NCBI RefSeq assembly: GCF_054482525.1
Contig: NZ_CM137006.1
Strand: one strand, 5' to 3'
Length of the DNA stretch: 64,000 nt
Below, piece after piece: positions 2,961-8,349 of this stretch (position 1 is its first letter; every line of letters starts with the position of its first letter). A program made the position numbers and the translations under genes. The notes below the pieces were generated by a model. That model did no database searches and was not told the DNA's origin. It saw nothing but the letters and a program-made list of their open reading frames with translations.

Positions 2961-4184
2961 TTATGGGATTATATTCTGGTAATGATTTGATAAGCGAATT
3001 CTTTTGCCAGTTGGTATTTCTATTTCCACCCCATAATTTATAGTTTTTTCATCAGGTAGCGATCTCTTTAAATAAGGTGCGCATGACATTTTTTTTGGGT
3101 TAAGCGTCTCGCGTTGAAATACTTCGAATTGATATTCAGACATTTCTGCCCATGTTTGAATTTTATTGTATCGGGAGAGTGTCGTAAAGGCTTTAACTTG
3201 CTTATAACATTGTTTTTTGAATTCTTGCTGATATTTTAATATGTCATTGTATGAAATATTGGTTATCCTGGCCTCTAAGAATTTAATTATTGTCGAAGCA
3301 ATTTCCGCTTTTGCTCGTAAAAAGTTGTCATTAATGGTTAATAATGTTGAAAATAAACCTTCGATTTGTTTGTCAAGATATTGATCGTCTTTATATAATT
3401 TTGGGGTAGGGTGTTCTTTATGTGAAAAAATAGTGTCACCTAAATTTGCGTCAGTGAAATTTATATTAAGTAGATCTTCGAAATAAAACCTTGACAAGGT
3501 TAGAACGAACCCGGACAGGTTCTGTCCTGTCATATTGAAATCAATAAAGTTGGTTCCGGCAAAGACTTTCATCCTGTTTTTATTTTCACTGTGCTTAATA
3601 TATAACTTCGTCATTTTTTGATACAGGTTTTGAATATCTTTTATATTAGTCGGTAAGTCAGCCTGTTGTTCAGCAATAAAATTAGTATCTGAAAACATGG
3701 TTTGGACACTGAATCTTACTGGTATTCCCTCTTCTACGCTAATTTTAGTTATGATTGCCTTGTCGGGTTTAGGATTAGCGACAACAATGATTCGACATTC
3801 AGCACTTTTGTTTTTTTCGTATCTAATGTTATTAATCTGATTAAGTATTGATTGTGTCTGTTGCGTAAGTGGTGTCGAACTTATCGTTTCAATGTTAGTA
3901 ATAAGACTTACAAGTTGAGCCACAACTTTTGAGTAGTCTGCATTTGTATATGTAGTGTTCGTGTGGCACGCATTAATTTGTTGGAGTTGTTGTTGCGCTA
4001 AATCAAATTGTTCAGCGTTATATCCTTCTTCAGACAATGAAAAATTAATGGGTTGCTGTTCTTCCTGATTATCACAAGGCCACATCGGTGTGTCTGGTGT
4101 TTTAACATTGTCGGTATCTGTTGTGCGGTTATAAATATCGCCGTGATATGTATTTATCATACCTGGGGTAAAGTCAATTGACAT
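2961..4184 (-). CDS. yhiS: Uncharacterised AT-rich protein, YhiS-like (intact 407 aa), with a possible pentapeptide-repeat segment
   Basis: Long ORF in a strongly AT-rich block; RBS AAGGA 5 nt upstream of the ATG; position corresponds to yhiS between slp and ars; central segment [42 protein letters not shown] resembles A(D/N)LXX repeats. Confidence 0.6.
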
Positions 4185-4763: not shown

Positions 4764-5765
4764 TTAAAATAGCATTTGAGTCAAATAGCCCATCAAGATA
4801 GCCATACCTAAGATAACCGTCAGGAATGCAACTATCATCGGTATTCTGAACATTGATTTAAGTAATATCACTTCCGTCAGGCTTGCGCCGGCACTGCCGA
4901 TGATTAATGCCATTAATGCTCCCAGACCCATTCCTTTTGTCATCAGAACAGATGCCAGAGGGATAACCGCCTCTGCCCGGATATACAGCGGAATACCGAC
5001 AACGGCGCTCAATGGGATGGCGAAGGGATTATCTGCCCCTGCATGAGCGGCAATCCACTCTGAGGGAATAAAGCCATAAATAAAAGAGCCTATTAATACC
5101 CCTAACAAAAGATATGGCAGTACATCTTTAAACTGTTGCAACGCATCTTTGGTGGCTAGTTTTATGGGATTAATACTTACCACAGCTTTGGTACTGCAAC
5201 AGTTTACTACAGGTTTCTCAATGGCTTTAGCCGCTGGACTACAGCAACTCACTTTTATTGGCGTATATGTCGTCCCCGGCGAAGTTTTGGCTGGAGCACA
5301 ACAATTTGCTGATGAGCTTTTACTGGCAATGATATGACGTTCAAATCCCAGGGAATCCAGGATAATACTGGCAAGTACGGAGACGCCGGCGGCGATAATC
5401 GCGTACAACAAGGTAACTTTCCAGCCAAAGGTCACCCACATTAACCCGACGATAATGGGATTAAGTAATGGGGAAACAAATAAAAAAGTGAGGGTCGGGC
5501 CGAACCCGGCTTTCGCTGACAACAATCCACGTAACATTGGGATTGTCGAGCAACTACAGAACGGGGTAACGGCTCCCAACAGAGCCGCCAGGAGATAGCC
5601 TCTCCCTTTTCTGGCCCCCATCATCTGCTGGATTTTATGGTCTGGCACCTTTTGTCTTATCAGGCTCACACCGGCACTAATCACTATAAACAGCAAGGAA
5701 AGCTCGACGGCGAGAAACACAAACATCTCTGCGGCATCTTGCAGCATCGCAAGCCAACTACTCAT
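4764..5765 (-). CDS. ArsP-like (DUF318/YraQ-type) permease with a TPFCSCS motif; putative organoarsenical efflux permease
   Basis: Multi-TM protein with GAVTPFCSCSTIPMLRGL (motif at 5547-5567) and a loop with three vicinal Cys pairs (NCCAPA, VSCCSP, VNCCST; 5196-5303); start refined to the ATG at 5765 (GAGG 6 nt upstream); divergent from an ArsR-family gene. Confidence 0.65.
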   Translation of the reverse strand: MSSWLAMLQDAAEMFVFLAVELSLLFIVISAGVSLIRQKVPDHKIQQMMGARKGRGYLLAALLGAVTPFCSCSTIPMLRGLLSAKAGFGPTLTFLFVSPLLNPIIVGLMWVTFGWKVTLLYAIIAAGVSVLASIILDSLGFERHIIASKSSSANCCAPAKTSPGTTYTPIKVSCCSPAAKAIEKPVVNCCSTKAVVSINPIKLATKDALQQFKDVLPYLLLGVLIGSFIYGFIPSEWIAAHAGADNPFAIPLSAVVGIPLYIRAEAVIPLASVLMTKGMGLGALMALIIGSAGASLTEVILLKSMFRIPMIVAFLTVILGMAILMGYLTQMLF

Positions 5766-5788
5766 ACGTAACCTCATTGAATAAATCT

Positions 5789-5847
5789 ATATTTCCAGAA
5801 TAATCGAAATAAAATTCAGATCAAGATATTTCTGGTATTATCGAAAT
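5789..5847. promoter_or_regulatory. Two palindromic operator-like repeats in the divergent promoter between the permease and ArsR-family genes
   Basis: ATATTTCCAGAATAATCGAAAT (5789-5810) and ATATTTCTGGTATTATCGAAAT (5826-5847); each is ATTTC-N10-GAAAT. Confidence 0.4.
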
Positions 5848-5872
5848 ATCAACCAGACAAAGGGGGTGTCAT

Positions 5873-6193
5873 ATGCAGTTGGAAGAAGTTGCTAAAGCGC
5901 TGAAAGAGCTAGGTCACCCGACCCGTTTGTTCATATTCAAACACCTGGTCAAAGCGGGGGAACAAGGCTTGCCGGTCGGTGAGTTGCAAAAGCAGCTTGG
6001 GATACCCGGCTCTACACTCAGTCACCATATCTCAGCACTGGTATCGGTAGGGCTGGTCAAACAAAACCGTGAGAGTCGAACGCTGATGTGTGTTTCGCAA
6101 TACGCAATGCTGGAAGCGATAATTGAATTCTTACGCGAGGAGTGCTGCGTAAATAGCAAAACACATGGCGAAGGGGCCACGAAGAACAAATAA
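5873..6193 (+). CDS. ArsR/SmtB-family metalloregulator with C-terminal vicinal cysteines (Cys91-Cys92)
   Basis: 106 aa; HTH region GELQKQLGIPGSTLSHHISALVSVGLV; lacks the ELCVCDL-type site of canonical ArsR but has REECCVNS near the C-terminus; divergent from the permease. Confidence 0.7.
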   Translation: MQLEEVAKALKELGHPTRLFIFKHLVKAGEQGLPVGELQKQLGIPGSTLSHHISALVSVGLVKQNRESRTLMCVSQYAMLEAIIEFLREECCVNSKTHGEGATKNK

Positions 6194-6213: not shown

Positions 6214-6639
6214 CTATTTCAGGCGTTTACCCGCTTCATCAACCACTTTCTCGCCATCTTCCTTGGTGAACGCGCGTTGTTGCGCATCTGGCAGAATTTC
6301 CAGCACCACTTCTGAAGGGCGGCACAGGCGAGTTCCCAGCGGCGTCACCACAATCGGGCGATTAATCAGAATCGGGTGCTGAAGCATAAAGTCGATTAAC
6401 CGATCGTCAGTAAATTTATCTTCTGCAAGGCCCAGTTCCTCATACGGCTCGACGTTTTTACGCAGCAGCGCGCGTACGGAAATCCCCATATCGGCAATGA
6501 GTTTGACCAGTTCATCACGCGTCGGTGGGGTTTCCAGATAATAGACAATGGTCGGTTCTGTGCCGCTGTTGCGGATCATCTCCAGCGTATTTCGCGACGT
6601 GCCGCAGGCTGGGTTGTGATAAATGGTAATGTTGCTCAT
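6214..6639 (-). CDS. arsC: Arsenate reductase
   Basis: 141 aa ORF starting MSNITIYHNPACGTSRNTLEMIR; last gene of arsRBC. Confidence 0.9.
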   Translation of the reverse strand: MSNITIYHNPACGTSRNTLEMIRNSGTEPTIVYYLETPPTRDELVKLIADMGISVRALLRKNVEPYEELGLAEDKFTDDRLIDFMLQHPILINRPIVVTPLGTRLCRPSEVVLEILPDAQQRAFTKEDGEKVVDEAGKRLK

Positions 6640-6651
6640 ATCGGTATCTCA

Positions 6652-7941
6652 TTACAAAGTGAAAGAGAGGCGTAGCGCCAGCGCAGCCAGCGTTACAAAC
6701 AGCACAGGCAGGGTCATGATAATCCCTGTACGGAAGTAATATCCCCAGCTGATAGTCATATTCTTCTGCGAAAGTACGTGCAGCCAGAGTAGCGTAGCCA
6801 GGCTACCAATTGGGGTAATTTTCGGCCCCAAATCGCAGCCAATCACGTTGGCATAAACCATCGCTTCTTTGATAACGCCAGATGCCGTGCTGCCATCAAT
6901 GGACAACGCGCCAACCAGTACCGTCGGCATATTGTTCATAATAGAAGAGAGGAAGGCGGTGAGGAATCCGGTGCCGAGCGTCGCGGCCCACAGGCCGTTT
7001 TCCGCCAGCACGTTGAGTACGCCAGAAAGATATTCCGTTAGTCCGGCATTGCGCAGGCCATAAACCACCAGATACATGCCGAGCGAGAAGATGACAATCT
7101 GCCAGGGCGCACCGCGTAGCACCTTACCCGTATTAATCGCATGACCGCGTTTAGCGACGACAAATAATATCAACGCGCCCACTGCCGCAATGGCGCTGAC
7201 CGGAATGCCGAGCGGTTCCAGGACGAAAAATCCCACCAGCAGAAGCAGTAAAACAACCCAGCCAGTTTTGAACGTAGCAGGATCTTTAATCGCTTCTGCG
7301 GGAGATTTCAGCAGCGCCATGTCGTAGTTCTGCGGAATATCTTTGCGGAAATAGAGATGCAACATCACCAGCGTGGCAACAATCGCGGCGATATCCACCG
7401 GCACCATCACCGAGGCATATTCGCGAAAGCCGAGGCCAAAGAAATCTGCGGAAACGATATTCACCAGGTTGGAGACAATAAGCGGCAGGCTGGCGGTATC
7501 GGCAATGAATCCGGCCGCCATCACGAACGCCAGCGTAGTGCCTTTACTGAACCCTAAAGCCAGCAGCATGGCGATGACAATTGGCGTTAAAATCAGCGCC
7601 GCACCATCATTGGCAAACAGAGCTGCAACGGCAGCACCGAGCAGGACAATCCAGGTGAACAGCAAGCGACCGCGTCCATTGCCCCAGCGTGAGACGTGCA
7701 GCGCTGCCCATTCAAAAAAGCCGGACTCATCCAGCAGCAGGCTGATGATAATAACGGCAATAAACGCAGCCGTCGCGTTCCAGACGATATTCCACACCAC
7801 CGGAATATCACCCGGATGTACCACGCCCGTAACTAACGCCAGTACTGCGCCGAGTGTTGCACTCCAGCCGATGCCTAAACCTTTCGGCTGCCAGATAACC
7901 AATACGATGGTCAGGACAAAGATAGCGCCTGCCAGTAACAT
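6652..7941 (-). CDS. arsB: Arsenite efflux pump ArsB
   Basis: Start refined to [13 protein letters not shown] (GGGAGG RBS 4 nt upstream), giving 429 aa; polytopic membrane protein. Confidence 0.9.
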
Positions 7942-7995
7942 AATGCCTCCCGGAAAAAACACATGTGCAAATCCATATGTGTTTAGATAAATTTT

Positions 7996-8349
7996 TTAAC
8001 TACAAATGTTCTTACTGTCTTCGGAACAATTTTGTCGAGCCAAGTTGCGGACAATCACCTGAACCTTTTCCTGTTCGCATCGCCAGGCCTGCTCAATAAT
8101 TTTCGCGGCCCATGATGGAATATGCGGTGATAAGCGGTAATGAACCCACTTACCCTGCTTGCGATCCAGCAATAGCCCACTTTCACGCAGCAATGCCAGG
8201 TGGCGGGATATCTTGGGCTGCGACTGATCGAGGGCAGTGCAGAGATCGCAGACGCATAATTCTCCCAGCTCGCTGAGCAGTAAAACGATGCCCAGACGGG
8301 TTTCATCAGCAAGAATTTTGAACAGTTGGATGGGTAACAGAAATGACAT
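7996..8349 (-). CDS. arsR: Arsenical resistance operon repressor ArsR
   Basis: 117 aa with the metalloid-binding ELCVCDLC motif in the HTH region. Confidence 0.9.
   Translation of the reverse strand: MSFLLPIQLFKILADETRLGIVLLLSELGELCVCDLCTALDQSQPKISRHLALLRESGLLLDRKQGKWVHYRLSPHIPSWAAKIIEQAWRCEQEKVQVIVRNLARQNCSEDSKNICS

Follow-up and report, generated by a model that had tools for sequence, protein, structure and literature searches.

A loop of conserved vicinal cysteine pairs in an Escherichia coli ArsP-family permease: a plausible thiol tether for substrate capture

The 64,000-nucleotide stretch of DNA analysed here (hereafter the window; contig NZ_CM137006.1, RefSeq assembly GCF_054482525.1) comes from an E. 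coli chromosome and encodes, close to an ars operon, a permease of the ArsP family whose hydrophilic central loop carries three adjacent pairs of cysteines. An earlier reading of the bare sequence (the original prediction) had singled out this loop as a possible substrate-capture or regulatory domain added to the permease core. By sequence, the permease is an ArsP-family member with an added vicinal-thiol linker, and the comparative evidence described below strengthens the capture interpretation, which we consider plausible. Specifically, we give even chances to the proposal that the loop is the cysteine-bearing part of a disordered cytoplasmic linker and serves this efflux permease as a vicinal-thiol tether for the capture and hand-off of its substrate.

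The permease and its cysteine-pair loop

The gene and its loop have the following features, with residues numbered on the 337-residue open reading frame:

4764..5777, minus strand: ArsP_1-family permease open reading frame, 337 amino acids (open reading frame list and translation)
5765, minus strand: probable true start at Met5, giving the 333 amino acids of WP_000100283.1 (annotated 'permease' by RefSeq in a 99.9%-identical genome)
5544..5567, minus strand: signature TPFCSCST, residues 71-78 with C74 and C76 (conservation in homologs)
5169..5330, minus strand: disordered hydrophilic linker, residues ~150-203, between the two homologous halves (AlphaFold2, composition)
5196..5303, minus strand: loop segment Cys159-Cys194 with three vicinal pairs (translation)
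5298-5303, minus strand: loop pair C159C160
5241-5246, minus strand: loop pair C178C179
5196-5201, minus strand: loop pair C193C194

The second ATG of the reading frame, Met5, is preceded by GAGG 6 nt upstream and agrees with the 333-residue RefSeq annotation; it is therefore probably the start, in which case residue numbers in published records would be 4 lower than those used here. A Pfam scan of the whole protein returned a single family, PF03773 (ArsP_1; E 2.4e-52, 178.4 bits), with residues 13-334 aligned on model positions 3-293/294. To judge from this match, the permease is a full-length ArsP_1 member (TCDB 2.A.119, the ArsP family), and the label 'ArsP-like' given to it earlier is justified at the level of the Pfam family. 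The same scan gave no match to the ArsD fold (PF06953). Two curated efflux equivalogs were ruled out by score, the SO_0444 Cu/Zn family (NF033936; 108.8 bits against a cut-off of 300) and SaoE (NF040736; 85.6 bits against 325). Both share with the E. coli permease the superfamily and the Cys-Ser-Cys (CSC) signature, but the permease lies so far under the curated cut-offs that it is a member of neither. Each position of TPFCSCST is at least 90% conserved across 100 homologs, and in an AlphaFold2 model the signature falls at a helix break, between half-helices 59-70 and 75-87. It is presumed to be the substrate site, at the tip of a hairpin.

Outside the loop, C74 and C76 of this signature are the only cysteines of the permease. 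The loop itself was correctly located by the original prediction: positions 5196-5303 run exactly from its first to its last cysteine and include three Cys-Cys (CC) dipeptides, and the quoted peptide, ANCCAPAKTSPGTTYTPIKVSCCSPAAKAIEKPVVNCCSTK, is residues 157-197 of the translation. Its description as a hydrophilic loop between hydrophobic blocks is likewise borne out, for a stretch of ~55 residues, by a hydropathy trough at about 145-210 and by AlphaFold2 helices that end at 148 and restart at 204. Cysteine makes up 9% of the loop, each pair lies in a small-residue context such as N/S-C-C-A/S, and the linker is net positive (9 K/R vs 3 D/E over residues 146-214). Random placement of the 8 cysteines in the 337 residues produced at least three CC pairs in 27 of 300,000 shuffles (~9e-5, with 0.17 pairs expected). 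Tandem Repeats Finder detected no tandem DNA repeat under the three CC units, and such a repeat was dropped as their origin.

Selection on the cysteine pairs

If the pairs matter, they should outlast the sequence around them, and this is what the orthologs show. In the 120 closest proteins, loops of 66-120 residues almost invariably contain 2-4 CC pairs, and three are kept in all four of the large E. coli protein clusters (252-3371 members). Indels do exist in the E. coli loop (e.g. AKASAKTLPG vs AKTSPG), and the major clusters still keep the three pairs. We aligned 16 orthologs, which come from Escherichia, Salmonella, Proteus (on a plasmid), Citrobacter and Aeromonas and include two metagenomic relatives. 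Compared with the query they are 56-97% identical in the core and 6-69% identical at loop positions other than cysteine; in the Salmonella, Proteus, Citrobacter and Aeromonas orthologs the loop figure falls to 6-35%, against 83-97% for the membrane core. Nevertheless, 15 of the 16 retain four to six of the six loop cysteine columns. As read from this alignment, selection acts on the CC pairs rather than on the loop as a whole.

The same tendency is seen across the family, in which roughly 4,600 relatives are detectable. Clustering at 50% identity gave 94 full-length PF03773 representatives, whose central loops together contain 227 cysteines and 58 CC pairs, against 11.4 +/- 2.9 pairs when residues are shuffled within loops (maximum 24 in 5000 shuffles). 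Cysteine is also more frequent in these loops than overall (4.1% vs 1.7%). CxC occurs 25 times and CxxC not at all in the 94 central loops. The favoured context is S-C-C-[S/A]-[A/S], with serine at -1 and serine or alanine at +1 and +2. Judged by these counts, the adjacency of the cysteines is itself selected across the family. Since CC pairs are both kept in orthologs and in excess family-wide, chance is untenable, and a compositional artefact was rejected on the shuffles and the conservation.

The pairs are by no means universal. At least one CC is present in the central loop of 30 of the 94 representatives and three or more, up to seven, in 7; CC is absent from the remaining 64, many of which have short, cysteine-free loops. 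A few central loops are His-rich (e.g. that of representative P0258), and loop length ranges over 29-138 residues. This sequence variation indicates that the loop is an accessory insertion found in part of the family, outside the core transport mechanism, and upholds the earlier idea of a loop added to the permease core. The characterised ArsP presumably belongs to the Campylobacter/Helicobacter clade, whose representatives share ~30-33% identity with the query and have loops of ~50-60 residues with 0-1 CC or CSC. Absence from functional homologs had been named as an outcome that would refute the original prediction; for the family it holds in part, since most members, this clade included, have 0-1 CC or CSC.

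Fold and membrane sidedness

Structure modelling, which had been proposed as a check, was carried out with AlphaFold2 on a 100-sequence alignment and gave a confident core (mean predicted local distance difference test score, pLDDT, 87.8; predicted template modelling score 0.84) and a flexible loop. Residues ~150-203 have a pLDDT of ~50-67 and no secondary structure. Both halves of the permease begin with a long helix and end with a full-length one, and between these lie two pairs of half-length helices. The pairs are broken at TPFC and SPLLNP in the first half, and correspondingly in the second. The halves are homologous to each other, residues 13-142 aligning with 206-335 at a probability of 97.4% and E 1e-11 (hhalign). 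In this model the fold looks like that of elevator-type, inverted-repeat transporters (DASS, ArsB, AbgT, CNT; similar to the IT superfamily). The published layout of the family likewise has two homologous halves with a hydrophilic loop of varying size between them (PMC7176098).

The distribution of positive charge was used to orient the protein. Mean numbers of lysine plus arginine (K+R) per segment (L, the loop between the two numbered helices), averaged over 100 homologs, are as follows:

N-terminus: 0.65
L1-2: 4.67
L2-3: 1.04
L3-4: 0.61
Central loop: 8.4
L5-6: 0.55
L6-7: 0.74
L7-8: 2.5
C-terminus: 0.08

Loops at matching places in the two halves show opposite K+R bias (L1-2 vs L5-6, L3-4 vs L7-8, and the N-terminus vs the central loop). 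An inverted repeat therefore accounts for the charges, with ~16.6 K+R inside vs 2.6 outside, and a parallel 4+4 arrangement, at 10.9 vs 8.3 K+R, is a poor fit. Because the halves are homologous and their equivalent loops have opposite bias, we infer that the N-terminus is outside and the central loop cytoplasmic; charge bias, fold and the fusion architectures described next all point this way.

Cysteine-rich segments at the N-terminus of relatives

An extra hydrophobic helix precedes the core in seven representatives. In five of these, CC, CSC, CACAC or CCC occurs in N-terminal tails that are rich in K/R (5-10 residues), and none of the seven has a CC in its central loop. One relative, P0162, is a metagenomic protein of 486 aa in which a weakly MerT-like N-terminal module of three helices (Pfam E 0.01) appears to be fused to the ArsP_1 core. 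A CC lies within helix 1 of the module (TCCGFPIL), and its CC-rich loop has four pairs; the ArsP_1 central loop has no CC. The segment in question, SASSCCAPQND...CC...CC...CC with Lys-cluster flanks, resembles SSANCCAPAK of the query. The arrangement matches MerT, which has a cytoplasmic Cys loop. Exactly one helix separates the Cys-rich segment of P0162 from the core, so that for this segment to lie on the same side as the central loop the core N-terminus must be outside. Taken together, these sequences suggest that the Cys-rich segment is a movable thiol 'antenna'.

Four members have His-rich tails joined directly to the core N-terminus, without an extra helix, which initially looked like a contradiction of an outside N-terminus. 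The tails are acidic and poor in K/R (1-5 K/R, 11-17 D/E), which would be compatible with their being translocated. From this small sample a pattern is emerging in which thiol-rich elements occupy the reducing side of the membrane and imidazole- or carboxylate-rich elements the other.

P0160, P0176, P0184 and P0186 have the signature altered to TPLCTFST, with a single Cys, together with N-tails of 64-77 residues containing 13-22 His, 11-17 Asp/Glu and almost no Lys/Arg, and a central loop with one CC and several His. This subfamily may handle a different metal, and its tails may be periplasmic.

A proposed capture and hand-off mechanism

We infer that the loop cysteines bind substrate as thiolates on the cytoplasmic side and hand it to the CSC motif, and that the substrate is most likely an arsenical. 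Each adjacent CC would be a complete site in itself, with two thiolates for a soft, thiophilic substrate. In the enterobacterial clade the likeliest such substrate would be a trivalent organoarsenical, R-As(III) (methylarsenite, reduced roxarsone or phenylarsenite), with As(III)/Sb(III) or Hg/Cd/Cu(I) less likely. R-As(III) needs exactly two sulfur ligands, and two thiolates are likewise what C74-S-C76 of the permease and C91C92 of the divergently encoded regulator offer. The tether would capture the substrate from the cytosol or from glutathione conjugates, raising its local concentration at the inward-facing mouth, and would pass it by thiol-thiol exchange to C74-S-C76 at the tip of the first re-entrant hairpin; an elevator-type movement would then export it. 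The divergent ArsR-type repressor would control expression, sensing the substrate via C91C92. Published work agrees with such a substrate: ArsP of C. jejuni exports MAs(III) and Rox(III) (trivalent methylarsenite and reduced roxarsone), not As(III) or pentavalent forms, and ArsH, encoded beside the pair on one plasmid and in Salmonella, oxidises the same trivalent organoarsenicals (PMC6205960). It is from this export and oxidation, and from the two-thiolate sites in the loop, signature and regulator, that the capture-tether proposal derives. As for the 'substrate-capture or regulatory domain' first envisaged, the retention of CC, the lack of CxxC, the ars context with a CC-site ArsR regulator and the Cys-rich N-tails all fit it; capture is not separable from regulation on this evidence.

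A broader version of the proposal is decidedly more tentative, and we think it rather unlikely to hold in full. It would have the PF03773 family possess a portable, disordered cytoplasmic 'thiol antenna', ArsD-like in action and placed in the linker or in an N-tail, which feeds the C-x-C at a hairpin tip of an elevator-type (not 4+4 parallel) fold; together with a two-Cys ArsR, it would constitute an unrecognised and widespread organoarsenical resistance in E. coli and on livestock plasmids.

The divergent regulator

The regulator gene (here arsR2) and the control region between it and the permease gene are located as follows:

5873..6193, plus strand: ArsR/SmtB regulator, 106 aa (NF033788, 61.6 bits against a cut-off of 55)
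6143-6148, plus strand: C91C92 of the regulator, aligned on AfArsR C95C96
5778..5872, strand not applicable: divergent intergenic control region with inverted and direct repeats
5789-5811 and 5827-5849: two copies of an operator-like palindrome, TATTTC-N10-GAAATA

The best match of the regulator in the PDB is AfArsR (6J05), in which As(III) is bound by C95, C96 and C102. C91C92 of the regulator align on C95C96, and no Cys follows them. The regulator thus has the equivalents of C95 and C96 and lacks that of C102, as does SpArsR, which responds only to MAs(III), keeps the CC and has no third ligand, MAs(III) needing only two (PMC11868830). All the enteric and Aeromonas partner regulators read ...EECC(V/I)NS... 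with no later Cys, and a third C-terminal Cys is found in two distant partners (Sedimenticola and P0281). The regulator has a further cysteine, Cys73, in its winged-helix hairpin, where AfArsR has none. Both EECC and C73 are conserved throughout the paired regulators examined, which range from that of E. coli to those of Sedimenticola and a metagenomic relative. The regulator shares its CC with the type 2 site of SpArsR/AfArsR and, like SpArsR, lacks C102; it differs in the additional conserved C73.

Each palindrome overlaps a weak sigma-70-like hexamer pair (5777-5804 on the plus strand and 5852-5823 on the minus strand), and promoter-like matches in the intergenic region do not rise above the level in shuffled sequence.

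Genomic setting and distribution

In the window the locus is chromosomal and consists of arsR-arsB-arsC, the divergent arsR2-permease pair, a yhiS-like open reading frame and slp. The neighbouring features are:

7996-8349, minus strand: arsR (open reading frame, RefSeq annotation)
6652-7962, minus strand: arsB (open reading frame, RefSeq annotation)
6214-6639, minus strand: arsC (NF007456, 304 bits; RefSeq annotation)
2961..4184, minus strand: intact yhiS-like open reading frame, 407 aa, its N-terminal half rich in Gln, Asn and Thr

The permease thus stands beside an ars operon and an ArsR-type regulator, both in the window and in RefSeq, as ArsP in the strict sense does. The 407-aa yhiS-like frame has no NCBIfam match; its counterpart carries a frameshift in E. 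coli PCN033, and in K-12 it is interrupted by IS5. In K-12 MG1655 the arsR2-permease pair is absent, arsC leading directly to the IS5-disrupted yhiS.

DNA of the loop was found in 2,233 of 5,426 complete E. coli genomes (41%), always on the chromosome and at 90-100% identity. When the whole 1.9-kb query is considered, about 2,237 records reach 95% identity or more, which is near the number of genomes carrying the pair. The loop DNA (positions 5140..5340) is unusually polymorphic within E. coli, with 513 genomes at 90-95% identity. Plasmid records with homologs number 1,001, and 639 of these, mainly from E. coli and Salmonella, are predicted to be conjugative; at 60% identity or more there are ~650 plasmid records, and many among those listed come from chicken/poultry and pig. 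Both plasmid loci examined carry the same regulator-permease pair, adjoining arsH and IS26/Tn3 remnants in one and IS26, without arsH, in the other. In Citrobacter the pair comes after arsRDABC, in Salmonella after arsDABC-arsH, and in Aeromonas it stands alone.

Some neighbours recur near CC-loop permeases in unrelated taxa, namely TauE/SafE (PF01925) and GCS2 (PF04107, glutamate-cysteine ligase-like). These and oxidoreductase neighbours were seen at loci L011/L012 (Salmonella), L007, L016 and L005. The L005 locus has as neighbour a molybdopterin oxidoreductase, accompanied by an Fe-S subunit and a TorD-like chaperone; this enzyme may reduce arsenate or polysulfide. At L007, in a metagenome-assembled genome of Syntrophorhabdaceae, a PadR regulator (3494..3925) beside a permease with a 4-CC loop has a vicinal pair of its own, SGCCVPT.

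Alternative readings of the loop

Several observations weigh against the capture tether. The published topology of the family is a parallel 4+4 arrangement of transmembrane segments (PMC7176098), and on that model, with the central loop excluded from the count, charge bias puts the loop in the periplasm (2.5 K+R on its side vs 8.3 on the other). As the Campylobacter/Helicobacter clade has 0-1 CC or CSC, the loop appears dispensable for the basic activity of the family, and loop CC pairs would not be needed for ArsP-type transport in general. The movable antenna rests on seven proteins, and its MerT match is weak. In the regulator, C73 might be a third ligand that completes an As(III) site, and it could alter selectivity. 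Finally, distant CC-loop homologs lie by PadR/CDF transporter/Metal_resist, GCS2/TauE or molybdopterin oxidoreductase genes. An arsenic-specific setting for all CC-loop homologs is thus unsupported, the distant ones being found in non-arsenic metal contexts, and because of these contexts the CC element may serve soft metals generally.

Of the other explanations for the loop, the one that survives best, although we think it improbable, is a regulatory or sensor role, in which substrate binding or disulfide formation in the linker would gate or tune transport by acting as a switch, whether autoinhibitory or activating, comparable to the His-rich cytoplasmic loops of CDF and ZIP transporters. Since the linker connects the repeats of what resembles an elevator fold, cross-linking it could restrain domain movement; the Cys pairs are conserved, and His replaces Cys in the central loops of some relatives such as P0258. 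However, central loops of 55-138 residues with 1-7 CC and predicted disorder suit multivalent capture better than a precise allosteric switch, and the Cys-rich segments that occur as free N-tails cannot restrain a linker between repeats.

Less probable again is a periplasmic loop, which would follow from an N-out 4+4 parallel topology and would have its cysteines oxidised by DsbA to structural disulfides or acting as substrate receivers at the exit. The 4+4 repeat units of the literature and the charge count that excludes the central loop are in its favour; the opposite bias of equivalent loops speaks for the inverted repeat.

We see little likelihood that the loop is a metallothionein-like buffer, sequestering soft metals or metalloids at the membrane independently of transport. 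Its cysteine content and the excess of CC and CxC are typical of metallothionein-style clusters, and the model predicts disorder in the absence of metal. Three pairs per permease are nevertheless a negligible capacity, and the loop is always joined to a transporter with a dithiol C-S-C site of its own and always on the inferred cytoplasmic face, by the inward-facing mouth. The weakest reading, a neutral low-complexity linker with CC pairs as compositional accidents, is very improbable: it could appeal to a loop that is poorly conserved, indel-prone and, without any DNA-level tandem repeat, more polymorphic within E. coli than its flanks (513 genomes at 90-95% for the loop against ~2,237 records at 95% or more over the whole query), but the chance estimate for the permease, the five-fold excess of CC over shuffles family-wide and the persistence of Cys columns where spacers drop to 6-35% identity effectively refute it on conservation statistics.

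Relation to known systems and significance

Among known systems, C. jejuni ArsP (TCDB 2.A.119) shares with the permease the full-length PF03773 match, the Cys-x-Cys motif and the linkage to ars genes and ArsR, and its efflux of a two-coordinate arsenical fits the dithiol sites of the E. coli protein. The clade to which it would belong is distant (~30-33%), however, and has loops with 0-1 CC or CSC, vs three to four pairs in the E. coli type. A functional parallel to the capture tether is ArsD, the As(III) metallochaperone of the ArsAB pump, with vicinal pairs Cys12-13, Cys112-113 and Cys119-120. Like the loop it has three adjacent Cys pairs, which in ArsD bind trivalent metalloid and hand it to the transporter by ligand exchange. 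ArsD is a separate, folded, thioredoxin-like soluble protein, whereas the loop is an unstructured insertion without ArsD homology, and the likeness is functional only.

In mercury resistance, a soft metal is passed from protein to protein through vicinal CC on the cytoplasmic face, by MerT, MerF and MerC and by MerA at its C-terminal Cys pair. The vicinal CC resemble those of the loop, and P0162 carries both a weak MerT-like module and a CC segment similar to the loop. The Mer proteins import Hg(II), though, and have their key CC within a transmembrane helix; the E. coli permease has no Mer homology and lies in an ars locus. Variable, disordered, ligand-rich cytoplasmic segments on a conserved core, like that of the permease, are also seen in the His-rich loops and tails of CDF (ZnT, CzcD) and ZIP transporters, where they are thought to capture or sense substrate. 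These use imidazole where the loop has thiolate, on a different transporter fold; the substrate class is therefore expected to differ.

The searchable literature yielded no description of a Cys-rich ArsP loop, although one may still exist. The arsR2-permease pair is common in complete E. coli genomes (2,233 of 5,426) and present on livestock-associated conjugative plasmids, yet it has never been characterised, because K-12 lacks it. Arsenical feed additives were formerly used in poultry and pigs.

If capture and hand-off by the loop were true, the permease would be a compact model of how transporters of soft metals or metalloids can do without a separate chaperone when they acquire substrate in a cytosol rich in thiols. 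A disordered, K-rich linker with S-C-C-[SA] repeats would be a signature with which to annotate substrate class in the large family of 'predicted permeases', and the loop would be a multivalent organoarsenical-binding tag for biosensors. The likeness of the modelled fold to that of ArsB and DASS, if it holds, would bear on the classification of the whole PF03773 family.

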